Positions 4,963 through 24,723 are shown, numbered from the stretch's first letter. The stretch is 32,000 nt of DNA from Candidatus Baldrarchaeum yapensis (GCA_016840465.1 JAEOSH010000001.1:30001-62000), one strand, 5' to 3'. The notes: generated from the letters alone by a model not told the origin. Program-made: numbers and translations.

Positions 4963-5283
4963 ATGTGCGAGTTTTCGGTAGTTGTGAGGGAAGGAAGTTC
5001 CGAGAAGGAGGTAGCACGAGACATCATCTATGCAAGAATGTGCGATAGAGGTCTTACGTTGAGAAGTTTCCTTGATGAAAAAACCGCCAATTCGGCGGTG
5101 ATTTTTGAGGTAGATGTGACTAAGGAGAGAATGGTGTTGATACGTGCGCCGTTCATTGAGCATTTTCTAAAGCTTTTGCTGATGTATGAAAGTTATAGAA
5201 GGGGCGAGAGGGACGCTGACGCTGTTAAGAAGATGTTGGATGAATTTTATAGAGAGGTAAAGAAATATTTGGATTCCACATAA
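4963..5283 (+). CDS. cooT: CooT-family nickel-binding protein with C-terminal helical extension
   Basis: N-terminal MCE (Cys2) followed by a ~60-aa beta-rich Hfq-like pattern ending IFEVDVTKERMVL; extra ~45-aa helical tail. Confidence 0.75.
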   Translation: MCEFSVVVREGSSEKEVARDIIYARMCDRGLTLRSFLDEKTANSAVIFEVDVTKERMVLIRAPFIEHFLKLLLMYESYRRGERDADAVKKMLDEFYREVKKYLDST

Positions 5284-5317
5284 AAGATGATGTTCTAAAC
5301 ATATGGAGGAGGTATTC

Positions 5318-5578
5318 TTGGTTAAGGCGTACGTGATGATAAACACGAGGCCGGGAAAAGAGACAGAAATAATTAAAGAAATCTCTAAAATGCCAGAGGT
5401 ATCAGAAGTTCATAGGGTATTTGGTCCCTTCGATATAGTAGTTGAAATAAAGAGTAGTAGCATGGAGGCGATCGTTGATTTGATATTTGAGAAAATACGG
5501 AAAATAGACGGGATCGAGAAAACGATTACCGCCATTACCGCCGAATATGAAATAGATGTGCATGATATGCCGATATGA
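5318..5578 (+). CDS. Stand-alone Lrp/AsnC ligand-binding (RAM) domain protein
   Basis: KAYVMIN, EVHRVFGPFDIVV, IRKIDGIEKTIT; no HTH. TTG start at 5318 preferred because GGAGGT lies just upstream; the track start 5303 is possible. Confidence 0.85.
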   Translation: MVKAYVMINTRPGKETEIIKEISKMPEVSEVHRVFGPFDIVVEIKSSSMEAIVDLIFEKIRKIDGIEKTITAITAEYEIDVHDMPI

Positions 5579-5580
5579 CT

Positions 5581-6615
5581 TCAGAGAATTGCAAAATGTT
5601 CCCTTCCCGACAATTCTCTCGACCCTATTACAACTCGATAGTAAGGAACTCCTCTTTCAGGCATAACTCTTTCTAATTTTCCATAAACTCTAATACGCTC
5701 GTTGACTTCGAGTATTCCGGCAAATACTCCTTCAAACGATACTAATTCTCTTATTGGTTCTACTACGGGGCCCCTTATTACAGTTACCTCACTGATTCCG
5801 TAAACTGCGGGATTAAACATCGATTCTGAAGTGTCCGATATCGACGCTTCTATCTCTATGGGACCCATCGGAATTATGCTCTTTTTCCCGTATTTCTCCG
5901 TTATTTCACTGTCTTTCTTTACCGGATGCACTGAAAATCTCGTACCTTCAAAAATTCCTAGATTCCATTTCCGCCTGAGAATTTCACGTGCAACCTCTAA
6001 AGGGATGCCGAAAAACTTCGATTTTTCGATACACCACCTCTCCTCGTAAAACTTCCTGATAGTCCTTTTCTTTTCAAGTTCGAGGATTACCTCCTTGAGA
6101 AGCAGGGACTCTTTCCTCCCATAAATTACTAGATCTATATCCGAGATTCGAGGATTATGAATCCCGAGCAGAATAGATCCCGTGACTCCGAAGCGACTCT
6201 CATCTATTCCGCTTTCTTTGCTTAACAGTTTAACTAATCTCACTAATTTTTCTTGCAAAGGATCTCTAGACTTCAGCCCTATTATCCTGCTCAACTCTCT
6301 CTCCGGAAGGTACCAATTCTCGATACGGGAATGAGGTACCGCTGAAAATGTTATCCTGTTATAAGGGCAATAGTAAATATATTCCGGATAATTCTGTTTA
6401 AGAAATTCAAATGTTGCACAGACATCACGCGCGGAATAGAACGAAATTTTTCTCTCGTAACATGACCTGCTGTCACACCACAGTCCATCAGATGCTGGTA
6501 CATATTTTAAATACGCAAATACCCTATCCGGCGGGTGCTCGTACCCAACTATGCAAAATATGAAATTTTCGACCGTCCTTATGTAGTCCCTATCTTTAAA
6601 CGGTCTTTTACACAC
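5581..6615 (-). CDS. Uncharacterised Pol-beta-superfamily nucleotidyltransferase (COG1665-like), paralog 2
   Basis: GVTGSILLG...SDIDLVIYG signature; HPPDRV, AVPH; beta-rich C-terminal domain; GTG start with GGAGGT SD. Confidence 0.8.
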   Translation of the reverse strand: MCKRPFKDRDYIRTVENFIFCIVGYEHPPDRVFAYLKYVPASDGLWCDSRSCYERKISFYSARDVCATFEFLKQNYPEYIYYCPYNRITFSAVPHSRIENWYLPERELSRIIGLKSRDPLQEKLVRLVKLLSKESGIDESRFGVTGSILLGIHNPRISDIDLVIYGRKESLLLKEVILELEKKRTIRKFYEERWCIEKSKFFGIPLEVAREILRRKWNLGIFEGTRFSVHPVKKDSEITEKYGKKSIIPMGPIEIEASISDTSESMFNPAVYGISEVTVIRGPVVEPIRELVSFEGVFAGILEVNERIRVYGKLERVMPERGVPYYRVVIGSRELSGREHFAIL

Positions 6616-6619
6616 AGGC

Positions 6620-7651
6620 TTACCTCCTTATCAGAAAATCGTCCCTGCTATTTCCTAGAATTATCCGATAGTAAGAAGTTTTATTTTTAACATCAGTAAC
6701 ACGCTCCACATCTCCTCTAACAATAATTATGTCGTTATCATTAGCGAGTTCTGTAAACCTTCCCCTGAATGACACTACTTCTTTTATCGCGTCGAGGCCA
6801 GCACCGTCTAATACACTGAGAACTTTAACGAGATATCTACACGGCGTGAAAATGGAATCGGAAGCATCTATGACTTTTGCTTTGACCGTTATACGACCGA
6901 CCTTCCTATAAATTCTGTCACCATATGTCTCGTTGATCTCTGATGGTTCTTTAACGAACCTTACAAAGAAGTCGACTCCCTTAAAGACTCCTTGGGAAAC
7001 CTTCCGGCTTTCCATTAGAAGGAAATCCTCGAAACTTACGTTCATTGCTTGTTTTTTAAATTCGTATAGATCTTTAAGCTCTGTTAATGTATATCTCCTT
7101 AAGTCTTTCTCGGATTCAAGCAATTGGTGTAATGCTTCATACGCTTTTCTGCATTCTTTTTCTCCGTAAATTACGAGATCTAAATCCGAATCTTCGGTTT
7201 CTAGCCCGACTAAAATGGATCCAGATATCCCAATACTAGATATCGGTATATTCGCCTCCTTAGATATAATTTTGGCTAGATCAATTGCATATTCCTTTAG
7301 TTTTCCGATCTCTTGCGATCCCGCCCTCTTAGATAATAGTTTCCTCAGCTGTTGCCTAGGTTCATAGACAATATTTATTCTGTCATGAGGTACGGCTTGC
7401 AGTTCCATTCCAAAAACATAATCAAAGTAGACATAGGCGGGATAATTGCTACGGAGGAAGTCATATCTCTCCTTTAAATCATACAACTTGGAATATCTTC
7501 GTCCGTCGGATCTTAAACGGTTTCCTCTTTCATTCAGGTAGTATCGAACAAAAGCAATCACTCTATCGGGTGGATGCACGAGCCCTTTAACGTCAAATAT
7601 TAAACCTTCCACAGTTTCCACGAATGCTCCTTCAATGATCGATGTTTTCAA
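6620..7651 (-). CDS. Uncharacterised Pol-beta-superfamily nucleotidyltransferase (COG1665-like), paralog 1
   Basis: GISGSILVG...SDLDLVIYG signature; HPPDRV, AVPH; TTG start with GAGGT SD, overlapping the mptA 3' end. Confidence 0.8.
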   Translation of the reverse strand: MKTSIIEGAFVETVEGLIFDVKGLVHPPDRVIAFVRYYLNERGNRLRSDGRRYSKLYDLKERYDFLRSNYPAYVYFDYVFGMELQAVPHDRINIVYEPRQQLRKLLSKRAGSQEIGKLKEYAIDLAKIISKEANIPISSIGISGSILVGLETEDSDLDLVIYGEKECRKAYEALHQLLESEKDLRRYTLTELKDLYEFKKQAMNVSFEDFLLMESRKVSQGVFKGVDFFVRFVKEPSEINETYGDRIYRKVGRITVKAKVIDASDSIFTPCRYLVKVLSVLDGAGLDAIKEVVSFRGRFTELANDNDIIIVRGDVERVTDVKNKTSYYRIILGNSRDDFLIRR

Positions 7652-8588
7652 GATTCTTTACCTCTCTTCGTAATTCGCCAACTTTACTTGTTCGCTTTGC
7701 CACAACATCAAAGTTATGGATGCTTTCGTAACTTCTTACTATGACTCTTATCCTTGAGTCTTCCGGCAACCAGTCAAATTCTTTGATTATATGTAGGAGG
7801 ACTGAGCGGGCACAATCCTCCACAAACATGGGGTTTAAGTGTCCCAACCGGATGATTACCTCTTCATCGTTTCTCTTCAGGACGTCCTCTATCTGTGAAC
7901 TCACGGATTCGTCTATTATTCGCAATAGGTCTCTCCAGTCTATATTTTTCCCATTATATCGGCGATCTATCTCAACAGATACCTTTGCACGCTGATTATG
8001 CGATGCTATTGGTATTATGTTCAATATCTTTTCTAATGTCTCCTCACTTAGCCCGATCTCATCGATACGCTTTTTTAAAAGATTTTTCACGAATTTCTTC
8101 ACTTGTAATTGCCCGCATGGACATACCAGTAGTCCATAGGTGCTTATTCCCGTCAGAACCTTAGGATCTCCCTTTCTAGTGTTCAATACCCTCGACCATA
8201 TACGTATAGGACGCATCATTGAGCCCTGTGTGATCTTTGATCTGTACGGAATCACCGTTATGCCTCTGATGCGCACTTCAGCTACCGATGCGTACTCGTG
8301 ATATCGCAACAGCAAATTTGTTGCCTCCAAACAGAACTCCTCGACTGACGTGTAGGGTTTGAAGGTCGCGCGTTCGACTATTTCCTCTATTGCGTCGGCG
8401 CTTCTAGACATGTGAATACCGCGCATGCTCGGGGGCATATCTATGAAAGCGTCTATTTTCACGGAGATCACAGAGACCTCTTTGCCATGCAATATCTTAA
8501 GTTGCCGAAACATTCCATAAACTCCAACTTTATCCAGTCTTAGCGGTATTTTTGGAAGTTCCGCCTGTACATCAACATCATTCGTCAT
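7632..8588 (-). CDS. mptA: GTP cyclohydrolase MptA (FolE2 family)
   Basis: RGIHMSR, CPC, HNQR, PMFVEDCAR, SYESIH motifs. Start set at ATG 8588 (GGTGA SD), overlapping the stop of the upstream gene. Confidence 0.9.
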   Translation of the reverse strand: MTNDVDVQAELPKIPLRLDKVGVYGMFRQLKILHGKEVSVISVKIDAFIDMPPSMRGIHMSRSADAIEEIVERATFKPYTSVEEFCLEATNLLLRYHEYASVAEVRIRGITVIPYRSKITQGSMMRPIRIWSRVLNTRKGDPKVLTGISTYGLLVCPCGQLQVKKFVKNLLKKRIDEIGLSEETLEKILNIIPIASHNQRAKVSVEIDRRYNGKNIDWRDLLRIIDESVSSQIEDVLKRNDEEVIIRLGHLNPMFVEDCARSVLLHIIKEFDWLPEDSRIRVIVRSYESIHNFDVVAKRTSKVGELRREVKNLENIDH

Positions 8589-10182
8589 TCTTGTCACCGA
8601 ATACATCCACGTCTTGTACGTAACTCTTTCCAAGCTTTAAGCATATTTCTGCCTTCTCAAGTTCTCTGCCCAAGTAAAGAGCGTGAGAAACCGTACCAAC
8701 TAGCCCCTTACTTAATATTGCAGCAGATAATTTTACAGCACTATTGCCAGAAAAAATACAAGAAATTTCACCATTAGGTCGATAATGGGCAACGTATATT
8801 GAATTTTCGCGATGATTTACCCATATCCTAAAGTATCCGCACTTATCACGTTCAACTTTTCCAGGTAATTTTATTTCGTTCGTATTTATCACCTTCGCTT
8901 CGTGCTTCTTAAACACTTCCTCATATTTTGGATCCCTTTTACTCTTTGCCAGTAATAATGTTAGCCCCACATCCTTCGGCGGCATTTTATTCATCTTGGC
9001 TATGAATGCCATTTTAACAGCTTTCAATAACTCACGTACGGAGTATCTGCTCTTAACACTCTCTTCGGATGTCAATATAACCCCCGCTCCTAGTTCCACC
9101 GCAATTGACGCTAAAAGAGCGTTTACGCCAGTGGTATCCACATCCATAAGATCTGTAACGTTCCTTGCACCTAATAACAAGGGTGTGTCACCATCAAATT
9201 TTCTGAAGACTATTGCTCTATGCAGGGAATTTACTATCCCTGGAAAGACTGGTGGATATATTATGGGATCCGCGAGTATTTTTCGAAAGCCCTTCTTACG
9301 GGCGTCATTTATGAGATTTATTAGGGTCTTCACCACCTGTTCAGCATTCATCACGTATTCGACCTGCTTCTGACCTATCGATGGAACTATCACTATTCCC
9401 ACATCTTCTGGAAGAGAATTCAGAAGATGCGAATTCTCTAAGCCTATACTTAACACCATGTCGATACCGGCATCGACCGCCGCTTCTATGTCCTCGTCAA
9501 AAACACTATCAACACTTAGTACTAGGTTTCTTCCGATTTCGCTACGAAGTCCCTTTACTACCTCCATTATCTTCTCAGGATGTGGCGCGGAAGGACTTCC
9601 GCCTAAGTCGATAATGTGTGCACCGCTCTTAATATAGTATTTTACTAGCGAAAGTATTTCTCCCAACGGGCGTTCTACGACATTATCCACTTCTGCTAAA
9701 ATCTTCGGCATGCAATCAGTTCCTACTTTCAAACGTCTTCCCGATCTACCAATCATGAAGTTCCTAAGATTATCTATTTCGACCTCTCGTTCCTTGTTAT
9801 CGATTTCCCCCAGATATTTCTTCAGAATAGAAGTTTTTAGTAGTAGATCGGCTGGTTCTATAGGTGATAGGTTTATTTTTCCCCTTAGAAGGTATGAAAC
9901 CACAAATGGTATGTCGGAGGCGTACCTCGGACCCTTGACTATAGTTACTCCTAACTCCTTTCCAATTTCGGATAAATCTCCGCGTACCATCCCGGATACC
10001 ATAATTAGGTCGTATTCTTTCAAATCTCCCCGTCGTTTGAGATGTTTCTTCAGGAAGTGTGGTGTCATGAGTGCGGCGACATCTATGGGCAATACTTCGA
10101 CATCCGCACTAACCGGAAGTTTTTTAGAAATTTCTTCTAGAAGCTTAGCCGCCAATCTACCCGTTACCAGAAGAATTTTCAT
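8578..10182 (-). CDS. Dihydropteroate synthase-like pterin-binding protein (MJ0107/Orf20 type; N-terminal extra domain, TIM barrel, C-terminal DUF4346-like domain)
   Basis: MKILLVTGRLA N-terminus, GAHIIDLG, LSVDS, LADP, RNVTDLMDVDTTGVNALL, and C-terminal GYFRI...HALYLGRELEKAE...YVQD. Confidence 0.88.
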   Translation of the reverse strand: MKILLVTGRLAAKLLEEISKKLPVSADVEVLPIDVAALMTPHFLKKHLKRRGDLKEYDLIMVSGMVRGDLSEIGKELGVTIVKGPRYASDIPFVVSYLLRGKINLSPIEPADLLLKTSILKKYLGEIDNKEREVEIDNLRNFMIGRSGRRLKVGTDCMPKILAEVDNVVERPLGEILSLVKYYIKSGAHIIDLGGSPSAPHPEKIMEVVKGLRSEIGRNLVLSVDSVFDEDIEAAVDAGIDMVLSIGLENSHLLNSLPEDVGIVIVPSIGQKQVEYVMNAEQVVKTLINLINDARKKGFRKILADPIIYPPVFPGIVNSLHRAIVFRKFDGDTPLLLGARNVTDLMDVDTTGVNALLASIAVELGAGVILTSEESVKSRYSVRELLKAVKMAFIAKMNKMPPKDVGLTLLLAKSKRDPKYEEVFKKHEAKVINTNEIKLPGKVERDKCGYFRIWVNHRENSIYVAHYRPNGEISCIFSGNSAVKLSAAILSKGLVGTVSHALYLGRELEKAEICLKLGKSYVQDVDVFGDKNDE

Positions 10183-10192
10183 TTATTATCCC

Positions 10193-10915
10193 CTATAAAC
10201 TCTTTAAGATCTCCAATATTCTACTCGGAGATTCCAAAACCGTTATTCCCTCCATTCTGGATAACTTCCTCAGGTTTCTGATTTCCACATCTCTAACCTT
10301 TGTCTTCACTTTCATGCCAAATGATAGAGCCCCGTATTTACAGAGATTAACACAAATTTTACAACCTATGCAACGTTGTAAGTCCACGGTGATCTTTCCC
10401 TCCACTACTTTTAACGCAACGGTAGGACAATTCTTAAGTGGAGGGCAATCTTCACATCCCCTGCAAATGTCCCTATTGGCGATAAGGGGTAATGTTGCAT
10501 CTACGTATCTGCCTCCTATGTCGGTGGGCAAAATGTACACGGGAGTGTCTGCTTTTATTGCCTGAGAAACAGCTGCCGTGATCAACGTATCCGAGATTCC
10601 GTGAACTATTTTTGCAATAGTATTGGAGGTGGCAGGAGCAACTATAAGTGCATTATACATTCTTAAAGAAAATCGTCCTATCTTAGGGAAACTACTCCCC
10701 TGCTCGCTTTCCCTTATTATTTCCGAATAGTAAGACCCATCCGATACCTCACTGAGGCGGTTCCATATTCCGTACATTCGCGCTACTTCCTCTCCCGCCT
10801 TTGATATGAAAATTGTCACCTTTATTGGCAAATTTTTTACTGCCCATCTGAAAACCTCAAAAGTTTCCAGTAGGAACTGCCCGCCACCAGTTATGCCCCA
10901 CGCAACTCTCTTCAC
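10193..10915 (-). CDS. dmrX: Iron-sulfur archaeoflavoprotein, dihydromethanopterin reductase DmrX type
   Basis: RVAWGITGGG and APATSNTIAKIVHGISDTL (HFCD flavoprotein fold) plus CRGCEDCPPLKNCP and CIGCKICVNLC ferredoxin motifs; located in a pterin operon. Confidence 0.85.
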   Translation of the reverse strand: MKRVAWGITGGGQFLLETFEVFRWAVKNLPIKVTIFISKAGEEVARMYGIWNRLSEVSDGSYYSEIIRESEQGSSFPKIGRFSLRMYNALIVAPATSNTIAKIVHGISDTLITAAVSQAIKADTPVYILPTDIGGRYVDATLPLIANRDICRGCEDCPPLKNCPTVALKVVEGKITVDLQRCIGCKICVNLCKYGALSFGMKVKTKVRDVEIRNLRKLSRMEGITVLESPSRILEILKSL

Positions 10916-12003
10916 ATTCTAGCACCACTTGTAAATTTGCTTCTTAAACTCTCTATTTCGTCGAAAAATATATGATCGAGAACTGTGCCCGCCGCTTCCT
11001 TAATTTTCATCACATCAACCAGCTTCTTGTAAATGCCCCCACTGAGACCATCAGCAATTATGGCTGCACCCTGCGCGGCCTCTTTAGCGACACGTGCAAA
11101 CCCCTTAATTGTCCGTACGGGGGCTATCTTTACTAAGTATTCTCGTAATATTCCTAGAAAGGTGTTTATTCTTGCTAACCTGCCGGACACCAGTATTTCG
11201 CGCGGATCTTGTAGTACCGCCAGTAATGAAAAAACGTCCTTTATTAGCCCTTCAGTTAATGCCTTTATTGCAATTCTGACGCGTTCATCATACTCGGCAA
11301 GTTTAAATAATTCTTCCGGCGTTGCGTTTTCGCATCCTGCTATATACACTGCACCTCCCTTGTAGATTGTTGTTTTTAACAAACTTCCCATGAGGTAAGC
11401 GAGTTCCGCGTCAAGCGCTCCACACGCCCTTAACCCTATATGTCCTTCTGCACCTCCGATGCCGTCTATTATTCTCCCATCGTCTATTGCCAGCACTGCA
11501 TTGAAGCCAGTGCCACTTTCAATAAGTATGAATCTCGTCTCCTCTATCGGTATTTGTAAGTTCTCCGATTGATCCACTATCGCCAAAGCAGCCACGCAAA
11601 CCTTATCAGCGGTGCCCATATCGATTTTATTCACTTTCCTATGGATAGGTACTGTAGGAAGATGTTTTACTCCCGGAATCACGTAAGCGGGTATTTCCTC
11701 TTCTATAAGCAGTTTTATTACAGAAGTAAGCCCGACAATTTCCTCTTTGCCTTCTCTTTTCAATGTCATTAAGAATATGTCAGCATCACTTATTTCAGAC
11801 ACTTTTTTAAGAGGGAGACCAAAGCCGCTGGGAGCAACTACCATATCAACTTCCTTAAGAGATTTCAGAATGTCGACTATTATCCTAGGATTCTTCAGGA
11901 CACGGCGTGTCGGAATAGACACATCTAATATCAAGGCACCATCTTCCAGCCCAACTAAATCCCAAGATCCCGTTCCAGGATCTATTCCCACAACTCTAGT
12001 CAT
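10912..12003 (-). CDS. DUF1464 family ASKHA-fold (butyrate/sugar kinase-like) protein
   Basis: VVGIDPGT phosphate-1 motif, APSGFG, KIDMGTADK, ESGTG, IIDGIGG, ILVSGR, AAQGAA. Start at ATG 12003 preferred (track start 12018). Confidence 0.85.
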   Translation of the reverse strand: MTRVVGIDPGTGSWDLVGLEDGALILDVSIPTRRVLKNPRIIVDILKSLKEVDMVVAPSGFGLPLKKVSEISDADIFLMTLKREGKEEIVGLTSVIKLLIEEEIPAYVIPGVKHLPTVPIHRKVNKIDMGTADKVCVAALAIVDQSENLQIPIEETRFILIESGTGFNAVLAIDDGRIIDGIGGAEGHIGLRACGALDAELAYLMGSLLKTTIYKGGAVYIAGCENATPEELFKLAEYDERVRIAIKALTEGLIKDVFSLLAVLQDPREILVSGRLARINTFLGILREYLVKIAPVRTIKGFARVAKEAAQGAAIIADGLSGGIYKKLVDVMKIKEAAGTVLDHIFFDEIESLRSKFTSGARM

Positions 12004-12021
12004 TATTTCCACTTCCAAGAA

Positions 12022-12999
12022 TTATAAGACTCGGATTTCCGCGCCGGTATTATTTGCTCTTGCAACAAAGACTTGGCCACCGATCTTGCTTAAAAATTCC
12101 TTCGTCTTTCTCATAAGTTCTATTGCTTCGTCGTATCCTTCAATAACACCATAGACAGCAGGCCCGAACGAACTCATCCCGGCCCCGTAAGCTCCCTTCT
12201 TTCTCATGAAGTCCATGAGTTCCCTAATCAGTGGCGATTGCAGATTCACCTCTACCTTCTTGAAGCCCACGTTCTGTATCATAGAGAGCCCTTCACCGAA
12301 AGAAGCTATGTCCTTTTCTACGATTGCTGGAAGAATTTTCATCAGTATTATATGAGATAAGATTCTAACTTCATCGACAGATATCGGACAGTACTTTTGG
12401 AATATCTCTATCTCCCTCACCCCATGGGCTCCCCTCTCCACATTCGGAATTGCAACGACGAACATCCAATCCGCAGGAAGTGCATAACGAACCAGAAGGG
12501 GTGCAGGTGGCGCTCTTGACGCGGAAGATGGAAGATATGTCTCTTTTTGTTTACCTTTACCAAATGTGTGGCCCCCATCGAGTATGAAGCCACCGCCCTC
12601 AAATGCAGCAACACCTATCCCTGAAGTGCCGCCTCGCCCAGCTATTCTTGCCAGTTCTCTGACAGAAGCTTCGATACCGAATAATGTTGTTATACCTTTT
12701 GCCACTGCGAGCAACAACTGGGTCGTAGAACCTAATCCAACATGCTTGGGTATTTGACTTTTTATTTCGATATGCACACCGGATTCTATTTTGTAACGTT
12801 GAAGTATCTTTTCGGCAATGGAAATCACTCGGTCGTCCTTAACGTTGACAGTTATGCCCTCATCCCGCTCACTTACCTCTAGTATAACATTCGGATACTC
12901 CAGTGCTACTCCTATTCCTCCATCGATCCTGCCAAGTGCGCCATTTAAATCTATGAGTGTAAAATGGAGACGACAGGGGGTTTTAACGTATACCTTCAT
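12022..12999 (-). CDS. mptG: Beta-ribofuranosylaminobenzene 5'-phosphate (RFA-P) synthase, GHMP-kinase fold
   Basis: TPCRLHFTLIDL, RIDGGIG, PKHVGLGSTTQ, GRGGTSGIG, GGFILDGGH, GMSSFGP. Confidence 0.93.
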   Translation of the reverse strand: MKVYVKTPCRLHFTLIDLNGALGRIDGGIGVALEYPNVILEVSERDEGITVNVKDDRVISIAEKILQRYKIESGVHIEIKSQIPKHVGLGSTTQLLLAVAKGITTLFGIEASVRELARIAGRGGTSGIGVAAFEGGGFILDGGHTFGKGKQKETYLPSSASRAPPAPLLVRYALPADWMFVVAIPNVERGAHGVREIEIFQKYCPISVDEVRILSHIILMKILPAIVEKDIASFGEGLSMIQNVGFKKVEVNLQSPLIRELMDFMRKKGAYGAGMSSFGPAVYGVIEGYDEAIELMRKTKEFLSKIGGQVFVARANNTGAEIRVL

Positions 13000-13059
13000 A
13001 TTGACCCAGCACGTCTCCGTTCCTTATTGTTTTTTAGACTAAATGATCACTCCTAAAAC

Positions 13060-13728
13060 CTAAATTGCCCTTTTAAACCTCTCGTGAATATCCTCAATCA
13101 GAGATCTCGTTAGACGTAGGTACTCGGAATCCGGAGCAGTCCTCTTTATGATATCGTAGCATATATGTAACATCTGCAAAAGTAGCAGAGAGTCTCGGAG
13201 TCTTTTTTCTTCGATCGCTGCCAAAAGCCTACTAGCGGCGACTAGCGCTTCTACGAAGCACCCTTCAGCGCGGCAGTAAGGCCTTATAATCGCACCTTCC
13301 CTTGATACCCCCTCTATGTGCACAACTTCGCATATTATTGTCGCTCTGCCACCTGAAATTCCACACATGTTGCACATTCTGACCTCTATCCAAAACTTAC
13401 TATCTTTTAATACTGGCGCATTGACAACTTTAGCATGTTTGAAACAGTTTGGTGGTAGTTCGGGTTCTGAGGGTCCTTTTCCCCAGCCCTTGAAAACTGC
13501 ATTGTAGAGGATGTTTGGCTCGTATATGAACTCGATGACAGCACAACGGTGATGAAGAATGTTTTTATAGGTATCTGATGTTACATACGGGCGTATCACG
13601 ATGTGTTCCATATCTGGGGTGCTTATTCCCATCATTGCGATGTTTGGCGTCGTGCCATCGATGTGATAGGTCGCTACTAAAGCTTCGTAGATCCAATTTT
13701 TTCTTAACCCTATGGCTGTAAGTTTCAT
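13060..13728 (-). CDS. DUF447 family FMN-binding split-barrel protein
   Basis: YEALVAT...PNIAMMGI, RPYVTSDTYKNI, CRAEGCFVEALVAASR; first gene of the pterin operon. Confidence 0.75.
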   Translation of the reverse strand: MKLTAIGLRKNWIYEALVATYHIDGTTPNIAMMGISTPDMEHIVIRPYVTSDTYKNILHHRCAVIEFIYEPNILYNAVFKGWGKGPSEPELPPNCFKHAKVVNAPVLKDSKFWIEVRMCNMCGISGGRATIICEVVHIEGVSREGAIIRPYCRAEGCFVEALVAASRLLAAIEEKRLRDSLLLLQMLHICYDIIKRTAPDSEYLRLTRSLIEDIHERFKRAI

Positions 13729-13821
13729 ATTGACACCACAAGTCTGAGTTTCCCGCCAGCATTACTTATATTTCCAAGCGCCGAATGAAGCTTGTGCTAA
13801 ATATTAAAATGGTGTCTGCTG

Positions 13822-15183
13822 ATGGCGGATCTTGAGGGAATTTGCAGAAAGATGATCTCCGAGGATAGACGCATTGAAGAGATCTTACAAAAGCTTGTCG
13901 ATGAAATACTCTTTTACAAGAAGATCGACAGAGACCTCGCTGAGCGGCTAGCGGCCGCCGTAGTAAAAGAAGTCAAGATGAGTCTTAAAATACCAGATGA
14001 CGATAAAATCAGGAGAATAATTTATTATCCAGTTGCGGGAGTAACCGCCGGGCAACAGGGACTCGGGAGTAGAGGAGAGGGAGATTTCTTTGCTCATAGG
14101 AAAATCGCGGAGATAATCTCTTCAAGTGGGTTGCGTGCATTTCTTGATGTAAGAGCACACGACGATGCCGGTGCCGTTAATGTTGATGGTGCTGGACTTA
14201 TAGTTGCATCAGTTGATGGAATACATTCCAGATTATCAGAGTATCCCTTCTTGGCTGGCTTTCACGCAACGAGAGCCGCACTTAGGGATGTATATGTGAA
14301 GGGGGCGCGCCCTGTCGGCATATTGATAGATATACACTTAGCGGATGATGCCGATATCGGGAAACTTTTCGACTTTATTGCCGGTTGTACAACTGTTTCT
14401 AAGCTTGCAGGTATCCCGATAATCGGCGGAAGTACACTAAGAATAGGAGGAGATATGGTAATAGGTACTAGAATTTCGGGATGTGTTGTAGCCATAGGGG
14501 TTTCCGTGGTTCCAGGCTACCTCTTAAAACGCCAGAACATCAGGCCCGGGGATTTGATTATTTGCACAGAGGGTAGTGGTGGGGGTACCATAACAACAAC
14601 GGCCATATTTTCTGGGAACTTTGATGTAATTTTAGAAACCTTGAACCTGCAGTTTATAAAGGCATGTGAGGCGATTTTCCGACCAAACATTATTACAAAA
14701 ATACACGCTGCGAGTGACTGGACAAATGGTGGGCTCAGAGGCGATCTAAACGAAATTTGTAAAACAGTCGGCGTTGGAGTAGTTGTTGAGGAGGAAAAAG
14801 TCAGAAAACTAATGAACCCGAAGGTTCTGGAGATGCTTGACTCTTTAAATATCGACTATTTAGGCGTGAGCATGGATGCCCTTCTCCTTTTTGCACCACC
14901 CGAGAATGTGGACGAAATTATAAACGTTATTAGAAGCACAGGCGTTAAGGTGGATGTAATAGGCGAAGTTACCGAAAATGCTGGGGAAAGTATATTGATA
15001 AAGAATGGGAAGAAGATTCCGTTAATGCCAAAATATAGAGAGTCTGCTTATACCGAAATAAAGAAAGTGGTTGGAGAACTTGCACCACCAAATAAGGAAG
15101 AGATCTTCAAAAGAGCTGCAAGGGCCGCACAAGAGGCAATAGAAAAGGTAAAATTTGTAGAAAAACTGATAATGGAAAGATAA
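13822..15183 (+). CDS. Archaeal AIR synthase-related (PurM/HypE/ThiL superfamily) protein
   Basis: GLGSRGEGDF, DDAG, VDGIHSRL, RAALRDV, GGSTLRIGGD, SDWTNGGLRGD motifs; N-terminal helical extension. Confidence 0.85.
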   Translation: MADLEGICRKMISEDRRIEEILQKLVDEILFYKKIDRDLAERLAAAVVKEVKMSLKIPDDDKIRRIIYYPVAGVTAGQQGLGSRGEGDFFAHRKIAEIISSSGLRAFLDVRAHDDAGAVNVDGAGLIVASVDGIHSRLSEYPFLAGFHATRAALRDVYVKGARPVGILIDIHLADDADIGKLFDFIAGCTTVSKLAGIPIIGGSTLRIGGDMVIGTRISGCVVAIGVSVVPGYLLKRQNIRPGDLIICTEGSGGGTITTTAIFSGNFDVILETLNLQFIKACEAIFRPNIITKIHAASDWTNGGLRGDLNEICKTVGVGVVVEEEKVRKLMNPKVLEMLDSLNIDYLGVSMDALLLFAPPENVDEIINVIRSTGVKVDVIGEVTENAGESILIKNGKKIPLMPKYRESAYTEIKKVVGELAPPNKEEIFKRAARAAQEAIEKVKFVEKLIMER

Positions 15184-15186
15184 CCG

Positions 15187-15876
15187 TCAGCCGCGCTTTA
15201 AGGCTCTCATTACGGCGTTCATGTGAACCTCGCCTGCCAGATAAATGCCTCCACTCCCCTCAAATATATCCCAGCCCCTTGATGCCCTACATCTGAACTG
15301 TGCAAGTAAGCCAGCCCTCTGTGCCGCTTGTTCGACAGGTAGTCCGATAAGCCTTTGTGCTACGAACCATGTTGTTCCACAGGGAGATCCTCTTAAGACC
15401 TCCACCTTAACTATTATTCCGTTTCTTTCCTCCAGAACAAATTTTGGTGCACCAAATTCTTCGGCAAATCTATCAACTACCTCGCTTCCGGTCGGAGGTT
15501 CAAGAGAACACATTACCCGCGGGGCGATTACCTTTAAAGACGTACCTGCTAAATTTAGGAGTTGCCTTCTTGATCCTAACTTCTTCCACGTGAGATCTTC
15601 GCCCGGTATTAGCATAGCTTTTATACCCATATCCACCGCAAGCCTTGCAAGATGAAGCGTCAGGTCAGGATGAAGAGTGTAAGCGATCAGGATATCCGCC
15701 GGTTGTAAATCGTTAGAATTTATGTACTTCTCTGGTGAGTCTATAAATGGAGGGAGATCCTTCGGTATTGTCATCACTCCAACTATTTTGACGTTTTTTC
15801 CTCTCCCCTTTATTGTTGCCTCAACCCTTTCTCCTATTTCGCCGCGTTTTATTAAAAACACCCGCACAGAACGCAT
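15187..15876 (-). CDS. DUF166 family protein
   Basis: GERV, LPPFIDSPEKY, LHPDL, CSLE, FGAPKF, VLRGSPCGTTWFVA, CRASRGWD. Confidence 0.8.
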   Translation of the reverse strand: MRSVRVFLIKRGEIGERVEATIKGRGKNVKIVGVMTIPKDLPPFIDSPEKYINSNDLQPADILIAYTLHPDLTLHLARLAVDMGIKAMLIPGEDLTWKKLGSRRQLLNLAGTSLKVIAPRVMCSLEPPTGSEVVDRFAEEFGAPKFVLEERNGIIVKVEVLRGSPCGTTWFVAQRLIGLPVEQAAQRAGLLAQFRCRASRGWDIFEGSGGIYLAGEVHMNAVMRALKRG

Positions 15877-15950: not shown

Positions 15951-17744
15951 TTAGATCTTGAAGTTTTTTACGAAATCTACCATTTTTTCCGGCTCTTTTG
16001 GTCCTACTGCGACTTCCCATCCAGTTTTTGACGCTATATCACTGGCTAGATCTTTTAAGTCCTCCGAAACGATGAGTTTTCTATGCTTAACCAAATTTGC
16101 AATACCCGTGCGGTCTAAACACTGCGCTACTGCGTCTCCGCTGACCTCTCCGTCTTTAATTGCTTCTTCCAGCGTTTTACCCTTAGTACCAAGGACCACA
16201 ATCCATGCAGAGACATTTGCTTCGGCAAGCGGCACACGTAATGAATAATGCTCTTTGATATTGCTACTAGTTAGCACAACGGGGGCATTCTCGCTCGGTG
16301 ATTTGACCCCATATACTCCTTCTCTCACCCAGTATGACTTTCTAAGGAACTCAGGTATTCCAGCTGAGTCTCTTGGCCCTACGTGAACGTCCCATCCGGT
16401 TGCATCCTCTAATTCTCCCTTCAATCTTGCCGCAAGACCCGGTATTATTATTGCCCTATGCTTAACCACCTTTTCTAAACCTGCCTCCTTCATTGCCTCC
16501 GCTATTGAGTCCGCAGTCATGGTTCCGCCTGCCACCGCAGACTCAACATTGATGCCTCCTGTGTCTACCACTAGTAACCACGCATCGGCCTTTCCTTCCA
16601 CGTCGTTTCTTACAAGGTGATACGTTATTGCGAAGTTGCAAGTCACAAGGACTGGTGACCATTCATTTGGATTTCCTAACTTCTTAAGTCCTGGCTCAAC
16701 CGCAGGGTGTATCCGTGGGTCGGTGTAAATGTCCTGCCTGAGGGTTAAAGGTGCAAGAAGGGACCATGTATCAAGCGTGTGTATAATTAAGATGTCAGCA
16801 AACCTCTCAATAAGCATTGAGCAGAGAATAGATTCCATGAAAGCAAGTTCGATTTTTTCCGCTTCAGATAATGACGCACCATCTTTTCCTGCCCATACGA
16901 CAGCTGGTATTCCTAGAAGTGGCCATCCGAGTTCTTTGTCGCCCTTCTCTATCGCCGCCCTTCTTATCATAGTGAATATGTCAAGAGTGTCTGCTAATTG
17001 TCCTTCCCCAAAGAATGTTCCGGGATCAAGAACTATTTCCTTAATTCCAGCTTTCATGAACGCTCTTACAATGGATTTCAGCGTCGAAATGTCACCAGGG
17101 GCAGAAACCACGACGGGAACATTGTATTTCTGTGCTAGTTTACCGACTTCCTTCCAGTTATCTTTTGTTGCGGCATAAATCAATGGTTTTCTCTCTTTAG
17201 CCACTTCAAGCCCTGCTTCTAGAACTTTTGGATCGAGACTGCAAAGTATTAATGGTAGTTGACTATTCTCTACAACTTTCCTTACGCATTCCGCAAATTT
17301 TGCAGGATTCCCACTTGTACAGCGTACTGCAATTGCATCGAGCCTGTAGACTTGTCCTACCCTTTCAATCTTGAACTCGCTAATTCTCTTCACTCTAGCT
17401 ATGAGTTCATCCTCGGGCATTTCGTCATGAACGTCAATCGCAAAGACTGTAGGATTATAAAATGTTAATTCATGTCTGTACATCACTTCTTCTCCGCCAA
17501 TTGTTACTGCATTATCCCCAACGCCTATTACCACTGGCCTCACTGGTGGTGTTAGAAGTTCTTCTAACTTCTTTCGCGCACTCTCATATTTAGGATCCGT
17601 AAATAATGGCTTGCATTGTTCAAGTTTGGCTTCTCTTTGTATTAATTTGTAAGCAAACGCCATACAACTATCATATCCACATTCCTTACAATTAGTCCCT
17701 GGAAGCAATCTATAAACATCAAGCGGTTTCACCCTCTCGGACAT
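15951..17744 (-). CDS. cdhE: Acetyl-CoA decarbonylase/synthase gamma subunit (corrinoid Fe-S protein large subunit) with duplicated C-terminal domain
   Basis: LPGTNCKECGYDSCMAFA...C Fe-S domain, TIM barrel, DIYTDP, corrinoid domain (SPVLVTCNF, IIPGLAA, VGPRDS), then a second degenerate copy. Start ATG 17744 behind GAGGTG. Confidence 0.95.
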   Translation of the reverse strand: MSERVKPLDVYRLLPGTNCKECGYDSCMAFAYKLIQREAKLEQCKPLFTDPKYESARKKLEELLTPPVRPVVIGVGDNAVTIGGEEVMYRHELTFYNPTVFAIDVHDEMPEDELIARVKRISEFKIERVGQVYRLDAIAVRCTSGNPAKFAECVRKVVENSQLPLILCSLDPKVLEAGLEVAKERKPLIYAATKDNWKEVGKLAQKYNVPVVVSAPGDISTLKSIVRAFMKAGIKEIVLDPGTFFGEGQLADTLDIFTMIRRAAIEKGDKELGWPLLGIPAVVWAGKDGASLSEAEKIELAFMESILCSMLIERFADILIIHTLDTWSLLAPLTLRQDIYTDPRIHPAVEPGLKKLGNPNEWSPVLVTCNFAITYHLVRNDVEGKADAWLLVVDTGGINVESAVAGGTMTADSIAEAMKEAGLEKVVKHRAIIIPGLAARLKGELEDATGWDVHVGPRDSAGIPEFLRKSYWVREGVYGVKSPSENAPVVLTSSNIKEHYSLRVPLAEANVSAWIVVLGTKGKTLEEAIKDGEVSGDAVAQCLDRTGIANLVKHRKLIVSEDLKDLASDIASKTGWEVAVGPKEPEKMVDFVKNFKI

Positions 17745-17754
17745 ATTGTACACC

Positions 17755-18951
17755 TCATACTTTCATTGATACCCAATTGTAGAACATGGACACTTCCGCT
17801 TTTTTGTCAGAGATGAGAAAGTCTCTTATAGTTTTCACTATTTTTACCGCTGCTGGGTGTAACATCATTAGGAGATCACATCCTGCAAGCATAAGTCCTA
17901 TCCCTGTCGTTGCTTCCCAGAGTGGACCACGATATTCTGGCGGGCCCCATTCAGGTGCTTTTTTCTGTGATAACCATGCTTCTCTTGCCGCCCATGCATT
18001 CGTTATACCACCACTTATAGGCATCTGTAGAAGTTCCTCGCCTTTAAGCGCTGCTAGGCGTATTCTCTCGAAAACGCTGAATGCATACTGATAACCATAT
18101 CCGACTGCTGCTGATGTTGGATCCATGATTATTCGATCCTTCGGAAGACCTTCGCCCATCAGTCTGTTATTAAGTTCCTTGGCACCTGGGAAGTCTATGA
18201 AGCTAAGAGCTATCACATTATGTCCATATTCAACAGCCGCTCTTGCAATTCTAGCGTAATCATTTGCAAGCGATGCTGTGCTCAATGCGGTTCGTTCTCC
18301 TTCAATAACTTCCGCTGCTGCCTCTAGCACTAAAGGATCTTTCTTATTATCACCCGATCCACCTATTATTATTGGTACATCCTTAATTTGCTGGTATATC
18401 TCTTCAACAAGCTTAGCTGCTTCCTTTGGAGATTTATCTCCATATTCTGGGCTTGTGCTAATAAGATGAAGGGTTATAAGGTCCGGTTCGAACTCAAGTG
18501 CCTTCTTTGCCCAAGCTATTGGATCCTCCAGCACATCTTCGAAGTGTTGTCTAATCGGCTTTGGCAATCTAATCGGGTAATCAAATACATCCATCGATAC
18601 TACTGGTTTGTTCTTCATGGGATAATCGAATCTATAGAATGGAGGAGCCTTTTCCCCGCCTATCTTAATGACCTTCTTGCGACTGCCTCCCTCGGATTTT
18701 GTGGCTCCTATCTGCACTTCAACTATTTCTCCGGGGAATTCTTCACGTGGAATTTCGAAAGGTACGGTTTCCAGCGTTAGTTCTTCTAAGCTAACGCCTG
18801 GTGCTGCGGGTGGTCTTGCTAATGTTGGTAATATATTTAAGACCAATTCTTCAGCCTCTATTTCGACATTTTCCAGCTCTAACTCTCCAAATTTCTCGAG
18901 TATTTCAAGTATCGTTTTGCCAAGTCTTCTAATTTCTTCCTCCCCGCTCAT
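17755..18951 (-). CDS. cdhD: Acetyl-CoA decarbonylase/synthase delta subunit
   Basis: IGATKSEGGSR, IGGEK, HLIST, IGGSG, IIMDPTSAAVGYG, ERIRLAALKG, NAWAAREAW, MMLHP. Confidence 0.95.
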   Translation of the reverse strand: MSGEEEIRRLGKTILEILEKFGELELENVEIEAEELVLNILPTLARPPAAPGVSLEELTLETVPFEIPREEFPGEIVEVQIGATKSEGGSRKKVIKIGGEKAPPFYRFDYPMKNKPVVSMDVFDYPIRLPKPIRQHFEDVLEDPIAWAKKALEFEPDLITLHLISTSPEYGDKSPKEAAKLVEEIYQQIKDVPIIIGGSGDNKKDPLVLEAAAEVIEGERTALSTASLANDYARIARAAVEYGHNVIALSFIDFPGAKELNNRLMGEGLPKDRIIMDPTSAAVGYGYQYAFSVFERIRLAALKGEELLQMPISGGITNAWAAREAWLSQKKAPEWGPPEYRGPLWEATTGIGLMLAGCDLLMMLHPAAVKIVKTIRDFLISDKKAEVSMFYNWVSMKV

Positions 18952-18957
18952 AACGAA

Positions 18958-20349
18958 TCACTCTTTCTTCTTCTTCTTTGGAGGAAGTTCTCTCCTGATG
19001 ATCATCTTCTCAGCCGTTATCTTCACATTCTTAAATATTATTCTGAATCCGCCAGCAACCGGCACTCCTTCAACTGGAACCATCGCTGGAACCATTTCTA
19101 CTTCTTCTGGTACTTCTTCGGCTTTTTCTTCCATCTTTGCCCATCTTTCGACAACAGGGTGACCCTTCTGCTTCAGGAACTCTCTCAATTCTTCAATGGT
19201 CATAGCATCCTTCTCGGTTGCTATCTTATCATAAAGTTCTGGCGGAATAGCGTCCTTTACACGTTCCTTTATGTGACTTGGCATCCACACGACCCTAGAC
19301 CAGCCACCGTCAGCTTGGAAGAACTTTGGAGATCTCATGTAACCTATCGAAATACCAACGAAACCTTCTACCTGACGCCCTCCGCCAACTTCATTTGCTA
19401 ACGCTGAGAACGTTAGTCCTATTACTGTTGGCCCTTTGAAGTTTCTGTCAACAATTCCTATTCCATCAACTTCGGGTATGTAGAACGCTATTGCTTCGCA
19501 ACAACCACATGTTGTGTGCGGATAACCGAACATACTATAAAGGTAAACCCGTTCGACTTCGCCAAGAGATTTTTCCCTGACCGCCTCGTTTGCTCCTGAA
19601 TATTCTCCCCTTATAGGATCTAAACATTCTCCCTTCTCAACCCTGAAGTTCGGACCCTTCGGATCAATGCGTGCTGCCGCCCTTGCGTCAAGCCACGATA
19701 TTGAGCCGCAAAGCGATAGTCTATCCGGTGTAATTATACAGACGTGCGAAGGAGCAAAAGACTGGCATAGAGTACAACCGTAAAATTCCTCCACATCCTC
19801 ATCGTGAAGGGCTAATGCTCTTGCATCTCTTTCCTCATAAATCTTTAATGCCTTATCAAACCATTCCTTGACCTTTTCCGGATCCGTTATGAAGGTTACC
19901 TGTATCTTTTCAATTATTGGAAACTCCGATTTAAAGAGTCGTATGAGCACCTTTCCAATGTAGTTAAAGGAGTTCAATCCCTTCTTAAATGATGATCTGC
20001 TTAGCCTTAGCCAAATGTCGTAACGTTGGTTTAGATGCATGAATCCCTCAATGTAGTTGCAGAAGTAGTGAATTCTACGCTCAAATACACCTTCGAGATC
20101 CTTTTCTAACTCTTTGCCTGCGACCTCGACAATAATTCCAAAGGGATATGATTTCCCTTCCTCGAGGTCCTTGATGTCGGGGCCAACTATTATTACTTTT
20201 CCGTCCTCTACTTCCTCAGGTGGCTTGACCAAGCAAAGTTCGAACTTTTCCTTTACATTAGGACCTCCAAACTCGACATACATCTGTTCCTTTCTGATAC
20301 GCTCACCTTCATATATTGGACCGACATCTACCGGGATGTCTTCAAACAT
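18958..20349 (-). CDS. cdhC: Acetyl-CoA synthase beta subunit (archaeal ACS)
   Basis: PVDVGPIYEGERIRK, ERRIHYF, QRYDIW, FYGCTLCQSFAPSHVC, LCGSISW, HTTCGCCE, FFQADGG. Start 20349 or 20355. Confidence 0.96.
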   Translation of the reverse strand: MFEDIPVDVGPIYEGERIRKEQMYVEFGGPNVKEKFELCLVKPPEEVEDGKVIIVGPDIKDLEEGKSYPFGIIVEVAGKELEKDLEGVFERRIHYFCNYIEGFMHLNQRYDIWLRLSRSSFKKGLNSFNYIGKVLIRLFKSEFPIIEKIQVTFITDPEKVKEWFDKALKIYEERDARALALHDEDVEEFYGCTLCQSFAPSHVCIITPDRLSLCGSISWLDARAAARIDPKGPNFRVEKGECLDPIRGEYSGANEAVREKSLGEVERVYLYSMFGYPHTTCGCCEAIAFYIPEVDGIGIVDRNFKGPTVIGLTFSALANEVGGGRQVEGFVGISIGYMRSPKFFQADGGWSRVVWMPSHIKERVKDAIPPELYDKIATEKDAMTIEELREFLKQKGHPVVERWAKMEEKAEEVPEEVEMVPAMVPVEGVPVAGGFRIIFKNVKITAEKMIIRRELPPKKKKKE

Positions 20350-20358
20350 TCCCATACC

Positions 20359-20895
20359 TCATCCCCCCTTGAGGGAGGATATCATTTTTTCAAGAGCCTC
20401 TTTCCAATCTTTTTCGGAGAGGTTGGGGAAGGACCATGTTGCGTTTGGTTGGTACTCCTTATCGAGGGATATCGTGATCAACTTGGGTGCGAAATGTTTC
20501 AATGCGGATAACATCTGACTCTGTAGGTAGTAGGTGATGCCGAAGAATATAGCATGCGTGTATCCGCCATTTCCGTCGAATCCTTTCCACTCGGGATCCT
20601 TAAGCATGTTTGTTATGTTAATAAGAGGCATTGTTGCAACGGGTTTCACGCCATGTTCGAGGAGTATCTTTCTTGAGTGCGCCGTTGCAACCACCGGAAT
20701 TCCAAGCTTTGCAAGCTCAACTACGTACTTCACAAGAGGTTCTCCATCGACTTTCTCGGTGACTATTCTAGCTCCAACTATTAGTATTGGTCTCTTCGCC
20801 TTTTTCAGTATTTTAGCTACTGCTTCTCCTGATTTTAGGATACTTGCTGTTTTTGGTCCCGGGATATTACTAATCTGCCAGGGTTTCGCACTCAT
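20359..20895 (-). CDS. cdhB: Acetyl-CoA decarbonylase/synthase epsilon subunit
   Basis: PWQ..PGP, AKRPILIVG, WKGFDGNG, GITYYL, TISLDKEYQPNATWSF; ATGA overlap with cdhA. Confidence 0.93.
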   Translation of the reverse strand: MSAKPWQISNIPGPKTASILKSGEAVAKILKKAKRPILIVGARIVTEKVDGEPLVKYVVELAKLGIPVVATAHSRKILLEHGVKPVATMPLINITNMLKDPEWKGFDGNGGYTHAIFFGITYYLQSQMLSALKHFAPKLITISLDKEYQPNATWSFPNLSEKDWKEALEKMISSLKGG

Positions 20896-24619: not shown

Positions 24620-24723
24620 TTTTGAACCACCCCACTCTGCTACCCGATCTCACGTGTGGGATAACTATTTATTCATTTCAAGATTCCGTTTCATAAAGCG
24701 TTTCGTGGAGATGGGTGAGTGCC

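Follow-up and report, generated by a model that had tools for sequence, protein, structure and literature searches.

Which enzymes build the distal tail of methanopterin? Methanogens, methane-oxidising archaea and many uncultured archaea rely on this molecule as their central carrier of one-carbon units, and we address the question at an operon of eight genes from Candidatus Baldrarchaeum yapensis, which lies in a stretch of 32,000 nucleotides (nt) referred to here as the window (GCA_016840465.1 JAEOSH010000001.1:30001-62000; coordinates are counted from the window start). The last two genes of the operon, NT1 and NT2, encode nucleotidyltransferases (NTs) of a family that also includes MJ1086 of Methanocaldococcus jannaschii. 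Based on gene context and on analogy with known enzyme pairs, we consider the chances evenly balanced that a two-step system resembling CitG/CitX, acting on a small molecule, builds the alpha-ribosyl-5-phosphate-hydroxyglutarate tail. An inventory from 2011 counted about seven proteins of methanopterin synthesis as still unknown (PMC3087415). Our literature search found no paper assigning the tail steps, none joining "methanopterin biosynthesis" with nucleotidyltransferase or hydroxyglutarate, and none joining methanopterin with CitG; searches on MJ1086 and on DUF1464, another protein of the operon, returned only irrelevant matches, none of them in a methanopterin context. The locus and its relatives name clonable candidates for the tail steps, namely a CitG-like enzyme, an MJ1086-family transferase and DUF1464, and since the predicted reaction is defined by the release of adenine and pyrophosphate, a decades-old gap becomes directly testable.

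The first-pass annotation had described a co-directional block of eight genes at 5581-13728, and the open reading frame (ORF) listing returned precisely this block, as eight minus-strand ORFs with identical coordinates. Combined with Pfam and NCBIfam assignments, the genes are as follows in the order of transcription (lengths in amino acids, aa; bit scores are given against the family cut-off).

13060..13728, minus strand: DUF447 protein, 222 aa, first gene of the operon (PF04289, DUF447_N, 45.3 bits, and PF20766, DUF447_C, 25.0 bits, both above cut-off)
12022..12999, minus strand: MptG, beta-ribofuranosylaminobenzene 5'-phosphate (RFA-P) synthase, 325 aa (NF040726, 401.6 bits against 328)
10912..12018, minus strand: DUF1464, a protein with a predicted ASKHA fold resembling butyrate and acetate kinases, 368 aa (PF07318, 343.2 bits against 23.5)
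10193..10915, minus strand: DmrX, dihydromethanopterin reductase, 240 aa (TIGR02700, 279.5 bits against 251; Flavoprotein and Fer4 domains, 2x[4Fe-4S])
8578..10182, minus strand: MptH-type dihydropteroate-synthase-like (DHPS-like) protein, 534 aa (TIGR00284, 338 bits against 257; DUF6513, Pterin_bind and DUF4346)
7632..8633, minus strand: MptA, Fe(II)-dependent archaeal GTP cyclohydrolase, 333-aa ORF (TIGR00294, 255.3 bits against 220)
6620..7651, minus strand: NT1, MJ1086-family nucleotidyltransferase, 343 aa (sole family PF01909, NTP_transf_2, 24.2 bits against 21)
5581..6615, minus strand: NT2, paralogue of NT1 and last gene of the operon, 344 aa (sole family PF01909, NTP_transf_2, 23.2 bits against 21; 36% identical to NT1)

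MptG, MptA, DmrX and the MptH-type DHPS-like protein all pass the curated cut-offs of NCBIfam equivalog models. Gaps of 60 base pairs (bp) between DUF447 and MptG, 3 bp between MptG and DUF1464, 10 bp between DmrX and the DHPS-like gene and 4 bp between NT1 and NT2 separate the genes, while the ORF coordinates overlap by 4 bp between DUF1464 and DmrX, by 56 bp between the DHPS-like gene and MptA, and by 20 bp between MptA and NT1. Because the PF02649 match begins at MptA residue 21, the 56-bp overlap probably reflects an over-long MptA start, and the true start probably lies about 20 codons downstream of the ORF start. Similarly, the ESM Atlas record begins at NT1 residue 11, so that the 20-bp overlap is probably due to an over-long NT1 start.

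The one-carbon genes previously named as neighbours were also recovered, with ftr at 23723-24619, mtd at 24715-25566 (416 bits) and cdhE within a stretch of cdhA, B, C, D and E at 15951-23240, and the window likewise holds fwd subunit genes and an HdrA-MvhD fusion gene. That ftr, mtd, cdh and fwd genes share the window with the operon indicates that a methanopterin-type carrier is in use by the organism. Judged by their gene content, the eight genes form a genuine operon serving a one-carbon carrier of the methanopterin type, and their host is an Asgard archaeon that has an archaeal Wood-Ljungdahl pathway. With other archaeal methanopterin genes it shares MptA, MptG, the MptH-type DHPS-like protein and DmrX, to which related loci add MptE-like and PTPS-like genes; it differs in adding four genes without an assigned reaction (DUF447, DUF1464, NT1 and NT2). 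From their family assignments, MptA opens the pterin branch, MptG makes RFA-P, the DHPS-like protein would join the two halves, and DmrX reduces dihydro- to tetrahydromethanopterin. The operon itself is of a known kind, a methanopterin biosynthesis cluster; the new part is the module of NT and CitG-like proteins, best described as a variant of the CitG/CitX and MdcB/MdcG systems.

The transferase family and its CitG-like partner

Gene neighbourhoods were compared in the best 80 loci that a single scan of species-representative genomes gave for NT1 orthologues. In 61 of the 80 loci, the NT1 orthologue has a CitG-like gene at a distance of at most 10 kb, mostly directly adjacent, the usual arrangement being CitG-NT1-NT2 or CitG-NT1-NT3-NT4; many of the loci without a nearby CitG are short. 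We show that the CitG-like triphosphoribosyl transferase is the most constant gene neighbour of the NT family. All or part of the block of MptG, DUF1464, DmrX and the DHPS-like gene is also carried by six of the 80 loci. The Bathyarchaeia locus L014 reads MptH-type DHPS-like, MptG, PTPS-like, DUF1464, DmrX, MptE-like, DUF447, CitG, NT1 and NT2, with DUF447 overlapping the CitG start by 7 nt. The gene order of the window recurs in the Asgard families f8, f17 and f18, in the Freyarchaeota locus L061 and in L081, and CitG is 4-6 kb away in f8, f18, L061 and L081. Furthermore, DUF1464, NT and CitG are contiguous on one strand in five Thermoproteota genomes that have a weak single NT match (four of them one-contig assemblies).

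These observations bear on the earlier proposal that the NTs are candidates for late side-chain steps, which is strengthened by the conserved CitG-like partner, by the methanopterin-operon context in Bathyarchaeia and at least four further Asgard families, and by MdcG as the nearest named fold (see below). The accompanying picture of orphan enzymes had overlooked the CitG-like partner, which in the genome of the window is encoded on another contig, C83 (G000:C83:38968-39858). This partner belongs to the CitG/MdcB family, matching PF01874 over its full length (251.7 bits against 27).

Other genes were noticed at the same loci. In many Bathyarchaeia loci, such as L006 (9230-10000) and L040 (13733-14440), CitG and NT1 have an ECF-type transporter S-component gene (PF07155; ORFs of 250-320 aa) between them or alongside, which hints at the uptake of a vitamin-like precursor. 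Directly after NT2, L014 encodes a 528-aa nucleoside/AMP-phosphorylase-like protein (12148-13734, plus strand; Glycos_transf_3 and PYNP_C), which could relate to adenine released by a CitG-type reaction. The PTPS-like gene between MptG and DUF1464 and the MptE-like kinase gene of L014 are found at 5002-5430 and 7384-8205, respectively, both on the minus strand. At L061, a TiaS TCKD-domain protein (13512-14633, minus strand) is encoded between NT2 and CitG.

NT1, NT2 and MJ1086 are members of one large, uncharacterised family of archaeal proteins. A search of protein collections gave about 1,955 relatives of NT1 at E <= 0.001; those with a name at source are called hypothetical protein or "predicted nucleotidyltransferase", with the majority from Bathyarchaeia, Thermoproteota metagenome-assembled genomes (MAGs) and Asgard archaea. 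Both window proteins have the attributes of the Pol-beta superfamily, with PF01909 above cut-off, a G[SG] loop with DxD, and the Pol-beta core fold. The structure model of NT1, built from an alignment of 33 sequences (predicted local distance difference test, pLDDT, 95.5), has three parts: an N-terminal beta domain, a Pol-beta nucleotidyltransferase core (residues ~114-237) and a C-terminal OB fold (~247-343). In the structure search, MJ1086 (Swiss-Prot Q58486, 340 aa) was the sole Swiss-Prot entry matching NT1 over its full length, with a template modelling (TM) score of 0.89 and 29% identity. It is annotated "Uncharacterized protein", and M. jannaschii apparently has one copy compared with four in the genome of the window. 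A Foldseek search of NT1 against the PDB gave no match at E <= 0.001, and a sequence search of solved structures gave nothing useful. Beyond the MJ1086 orthologue, MdcG, the phosphoribosyl-dephospho-CoA transferase (holo-ACP synthase) of malonate decarboxylase, was the first named family in three structure libraries; the match spans NT1 residues ~1-176 and is weak despite a Foldseek probability of 0.95-1.0 (TM by hit 0.36-0.45, E 1e-3 to 7e-3). One of the MdcG-type matches is an MdcG-MdcB fusion. We take the MdcG resemblance as a lead.

Besides NT1 and NT2, the genome holds a second pair of paralogues.

G000:C56:3587-5685 (L008 3587-5685), 26 kb upstream of the window: NT3/NT4 tandem pair, 382 and 349 aa

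In Bathyarchaeia, the NT3 and NT4 paralogues instead adjoin NT1 and CitG. The tree resolves four clades, with support of 99/94 for NT1, 95/86 for NT2 and 100/100 for each of NT3 and NT4. Into the NT1 clade fall the only NT of the Loki-like family f9 and, from every tandem pair in other Thermoproteota, one partner, whereas the NT2 clade holds the remaining partner of these pairs and, on long branches, the single copy of four of the weak-single-NT Thermoproteota genomes (three of them assembled in one contig). The motif GxxGS...SDxD (G141, G144, S145, S155, D156, D158) is invariant in all four paralogue groups across the 80 loci, and several other residues are conserved at ~100%. The groups diverge at NT1 positions 62, 227, 231 and 296-300, where NT1 has R62, D227, R231 and R-G-R-F-C; NT2 keeps the catalytic motif and differs at these positions. 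With the motif kept in all four groups and residues differing elsewhere, all four paralogues look catalytically competent, and their pockets would be different. A predicted complex of NT1 and NT2 scored 0.00, which is uninformative either way on a heterodimer. A distinct domain arrangement is found in AlphaFold cluster A0A7V8VEV0 (rank 7), a 452-aa fusion of a CMP/dCMP-type deaminase domain with a full NT-family module (TM 0.64), and it is possible that this fusion hints at the kind of substrate.

Co-occurrence in Asgard and Thermoproteota genomes

Conservation of neighbourhood and co-occurrence across archaea, proposed as a check by the first-pass annotation, supports pathway membership for all three orphans, NT1, NT2 and DUF1464. 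Hit lists from 151 Asgard and 121 Thermoproteota genomes were cross-tabulated by hand. Among the Asgard genomes, NT and Ftr occur together in 88, NT only in 11, Ftr only in 6 and neither in 46. The corresponding counts are 90, 9 (all at most 94% complete), 24 and 28 for NT and CitG, and 62, 37, 2 and 50 for NT and MptG. In Thermoproteota, NT and CitG are both present in 46 genomes, NT only in 7, CitG only in 4 (all weak CitG matches) and neither in 64, while NT and Ftr give 28, 25, 2 and 66, respectively. Ftr or a match to the RFA-P synthase family TIGR00144 is present in 50 of the 53 NT-positive Thermoproteota, and the RFA-P synthase family is matched in 22 of the 25 that are NT-positive and Ftr-negative; among the 68 NT-negative genomes, Ftr occurs in 2 and an RFA-P synthase match above cut-off in 1. 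Overall, the NT family is close to coextensive with the use or synthesis of an aminophenyl-ribitol pterin, and its link to CitG is tighter still.

Co-occurrence with mptG, the form in which the association had been framed, is too narrow, as 37 of the 99 NT-positive Asgard genomes are without MptG; these belong mostly to families f2 (part of the window's own order), f7, f15, f20 and f26. Since most of them keep Ftr, co-occurrence with methanopterin-type metabolism fits the NT family better. In the two phyla sampled, the family marks methanopterin-type metabolism in a genome better than mptG does, and it brings to light lineages that use the cofactor but do not encode the pathway for its head group. 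Methanofuran synthesis was also considered as the role of the NT/CitG module and was ruled out, given that the module persists in Ftr-negative genomes with an RFA-P synthase family match.

The distribution also bears on whether the NTs could be RNA-, tRNA- or protein-directed nucleotidyltransferases, whose OB fold binds nucleic acid and whose position in the operon is accidental. The NT1 core (114-237) aligns with Pol X (3AU2, Z 8.1), Trf4 and TdT (Z 7.0), and poly(A) polymerases also match; the OB fold matches SSB, RPA, MCM-N and editosome OB domains at Z ~8, and the NT3/NT4 pair follows genes for glutamyl-tRNA synthetase and a JAB/MPN protein. However, Z ~8 is the usual background of that structure search, and a housekeeping RNA enzyme would not be expected next to CitG in 61/80 loci or, across two phyla, in the company of CitG, Ftr and RFA-P synthase. 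Moreover, 46 Asgard and 64-66 Thermoproteota genomes without these markers gave no match to the NT family either. We therefore regard a nucleic acid- or protein-directed role as highly improbable.

A proposed two-step route to the tail and its alternatives

CitG and MdcB convert ATP to an alpha-linked 5-triphosphoribosyl adduct with the loss of adenine, and CitX and MdcG join the alpha-phosphate of this adduct to a hydroxyl group with the loss of pyrophosphate. By analogy, NT1 and NT2 would be the transferase half of a two-enzyme module, with the CitG-like protein on C83 as the putative other half. In the first step, the CitG-like enzyme would transfer a 5-triphospho-alpha-D-ribosyl group from ATP to the ribitol hydroxyl of a pterin-aminophenyl-ribitol intermediate, releasing adenine. 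In the second, an NT would direct the 2-hydroxyl of 2-hydroxyglutarate onto the alpha-phosphate, giving the phosphodiester and pyrophosphate. The two steps would give exactly the known tail, and inversion from ATP may explain its alpha-glycosidic configuration. NT2, which has an intact active site and a different pocket, would take another acceptor or perform a second transfer.

The likeness to MdcB/MdcG and CitG/CitX lies, at the family level, in the persistent pairing of a CitG-family gene (PF01874) with a Pol-beta-fold transferase gene, in MdcG being the first named, weakly similar, fold match of the N-terminal half of NT1, and in the proposed product, an alpha-glycosidic ribose whose 5-phosphate would be in a diester with a hydroxyl group. 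In contrast to MdcG and CitX, which are ~180-210 aa long, the NTs have ~340 aa, carry an extra C-terminal OB fold and match no MdcG/CitX sequence model. The NT family also has up to four ancient paralogues per genome, and the CitG and NT genes are unlinked in the genome of the window. A carrier protein of the CitD/MdcC type (PF06857) was not found in this 96%-complete genome, with a model that detects the Escherichia coli control. The classical acceptor thus appears to be missing, which fits a small molecule as the acceptor. A classical citrate-lyase or malonate-decarboxylase role of the module was ruled out on the same ground. Despite these differences, the NT/CitG module probably shares its chemistry with CitG/CitX and MdcB/MdcG.

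The tail of methanopterin contains phosphate and alpha-hydroxyglutarate, whereas the methylotroph form, dephosphotetrahydromethanopterin (dH4MPT), is without both (PMC8141765). Even so, in methylotroph C1 islands mch and orf5 have a neighbouring gene whose annotation is triphosphoribosyl-dephospho-CoA synthase (PMC11533326, PMC3615186). Considering the gene order mch-orf5-orf7 and the annotation in PMC11533326, this CitG-like gene appears to be orf7. Orf17 was considered as the methylotroph CitG homologue and rejected, since it belongs to the HisA/HisF family and serves methylofuran (PMC8141765).

Several points weigh against the two-step scheme. The single CitG-like gene of the genome is unlinked to the operon, lying on C83 beside a proteasome alpha subunit gene, and the NT3/NT4 pair follows JAB/MPN, glutamyl-tRNA synthetase and DUF72 genes, not cofactor genes. 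Structurally, NT1 matches MdcG weakly (TM by hit 0.36-0.45), no MdcG/CitX model (PF10620, PF20866, PF03802) was found for NT1-NT4 even at E up to 10, and RNA and DNA enzymes, too, have domains similar to the C-terminal OB fold and the Pol-beta core. The co-occurrence counts depend on thresholds of our own choosing, in genomes that are related to each other and of which many are incomplete MAGs. Cell-extract work by White in 1996 reportedly found phosphoribosyl pyrophosphate (PRPP), not ATP, as the ribosyl donor, together with a monophosphate intermediate and an ATP-dependent last step. Finally, no RFA-P synthase, MptH-type DHPS, DUF447 or DUF1464 was found in five MptG-less Asgard representatives, G018 (f2), G074 (f7), G041 (f15), G052 (f20) and G111 (f26), so that the proposed acceptor would have no known source there. 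These five genomes nonetheless carry Ftr, CitG and NT genes, with Ftr within ~500 bp of the NT genes in G018 and G111, and seem to rely on a carrier of the methanopterin type while doing without the established route to its head group. The MptG-less Asgard could depend on salvage, on a non-homologous pathway, or on another carrier altogether.

The same families would suit a module that makes a different ribosyl-phosphate-linked molecule, either a small cofactor or a prosthetic group on a C1-pathway protein, and whose only tie to the methanopterin and methanofuran genes is shared regulation. Families f2, f7, f15, f20 and f26 retain NT and CitG without MptG, MptH-type DHPS, DUF447 and DUF1464; many Bathyarchaeia modules adjoin mch, fwd and ECF S-component genes, not mptG; and CitG/CitX and MdcB/MdcG themselves modify proteins. 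However, no CitD/MdcC-type carrier protein was found in the genome, and at L014 DUF447, CitG and NT1 are translationally packed within a complete methanopterin cluster. The RFA-P synthase match in 22/25 Ftr-negative NT-positive Thermoproteota further indicates that the module follows the aminophenyl-ribitol pterin, not methanofuran or the Wood-Ljungdahl enzymes. A product outside the methanopterin pathway is, in our view, improbable.

Given the reported PRPP donor and ATP-requiring monophosphate intermediate, we keep nucleotidyl activation as the main rival. Here the NTs would be true nucleotidyltransferases of the methanopterin pathway, one activating a phosphate monoester by adding AMP or CMP, in the manner of CofC/CofD in F420 synthesis, and the second carrying out the transfer. 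The CitG-like enzyme would then do no more than provide the alpha-ribosyl unit, or would have its role elsewhere. The substrate could be a ribose-5-phosphate intermediate, or 2-phospho-hydroxyglutarate from a kinase such as DUF1464. Both NT1 and NT2 belong to PF01909 with the GS...DxD site intact, and two tandem paralogues with intact sites suit an activate-then-transfer relay. DUF1464, whose predicted fold is that of a carboxylate/hydroxyl kinase, stands in one operon with NT and CitG in the five weak-single-NT Thermoproteota genomes, and the monophosphate intermediate and ATP-dependent last step that White's extracts are said to have shown would agree with such a route. Nevertheless, the Loki-like family f9 has MptG, DUF1464, CitG and Ftr but one NT, which means that a relay of two NTs is no general rule; the closest fold with a name, MdcG, transfers a phosphoribosyl group, not a nucleotide; and DUF1464 was not found in the control genomes of M. 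jannaschii and Methanosarcina acetivorans. We consider nucleotidyl activation unlikely, while taking it seriously.

Returning to the two-step scheme, a wider reading can be offered, tentatively and with somewhat more doubt than confidence. Small-molecule machinery of the CitG/CitX type would build the ribosyl-phosphate-hydroxyacid tails of archaeal methanopterin-type cofactors, with the four NT paralogues writing different tails and Asgard and Bathyarchaeia carrying undescribed variants. Lineages with only the tail module, Ftr and an adjacent ECF component might then live on head-group precursors of their neighbours.

DUF1464, DUF447 and the surrounding genes

DUF1464 matches PF07318 over model positions 1-325 of 327. 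The best solved matches of its structure model (pLDDT 90.8) are the butyrate kinase structures 1SAZ and 1X9J (E 2e-16 to 5e-15, TM 0.62), followed by acetate (TM ~0.6) and propionate kinases and then by ROK sugar kinases. The TM of 0.62 to butyrate kinase and the conserved phosphate-binding residues are consistent with the two-domain ASKHA fold; G11, D13, P14, G15, D133, G135, D138, K139, E167, G169, G188, G189 and G279 are invariant in 19 sequences. A sequence search of solved structures with DUF1464 gave nothing useful, and the weak NCBIfam butyrate kinase match falls far below the acetate/butyrate kinase family cut-off (NF002834, 30.9 bits against 222). Unlike the butyrate, acetate and propionate kinases, DUF1464 is a family of its own, and its gene context is methanopterin synthesis, not fermentation. 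It is probably an ATP-dependent phosphotransferase.

Across the Asgard genomes, DUF1464 and MptG are both present in 60, usually as adjacent genes, with MptG only in 4, DUF1464 only in 1 and neither in 86. In Thermoproteota, DUF1464 and RFA-P synthase occur together in 30 genomes, DUF1464 only in 4, RFA-P synthase only in 8 and neither in 79. Among 14 control genomes, DUF1464 was detected only in Sulfolobus acidocaldarius. The suggestion that DUF1464 is a universal late-step or tail enzyme did not hold, since its occurrence tracks that of RFA-P synthase instead of NT or Ftr, and neither methanogen control gave a match. Its distribution marks DUF1464 as a pathway member of limited taxonomic range, which in Asgard and Thermoproteota goes with the RFA-P (arylamine-ribitol) branch. 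DUF447 follows the same branch: the control archaea in which it was detected are the four that also match the RFA-P synthase family, and a search of the five MptG-less Asgard representatives did not find it. We also noticed a distant full-length match of DUF1464 to "methanogenesis marker 12" (TIGR03281, 33.7 bits, E 2e-8). As DUF1464 proper was not found in the methanogen controls, marker 12 could be a relative that fills a comparable role there.

Upstream of DUF447, reading of the sequence delimits one further feature.

13729..13821, no strand assigned: divergent control region, 93 bp, between DUF447 and an AIR-synthase-like gene

A TATA-like "aaatataag" lies ~35-45 nt upstream of the DUF447 ATG, and we infer a predicted promoter role for this region. 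On its other side, divergent from the operon across the 93 bp, is a gene for a 453-aa AIR-synthase-related protein with a PurM fold (13822-15183, plus strand), followed by a DUF166 gene (15187-15876, minus strand) that stands between it and the cdh cluster; homologues of these two genes were found in none of the 80 NT loci. At the far end of the window, 28531-31044 on the minus strand encodes an HdrA-like flavoprotein (837 aa) that has several 4Fe-4S domains and is joined to an MvhD/FlpD domain, and this fusion gene adjoins fwdB- and fwdD-like genes at 26798-28529.

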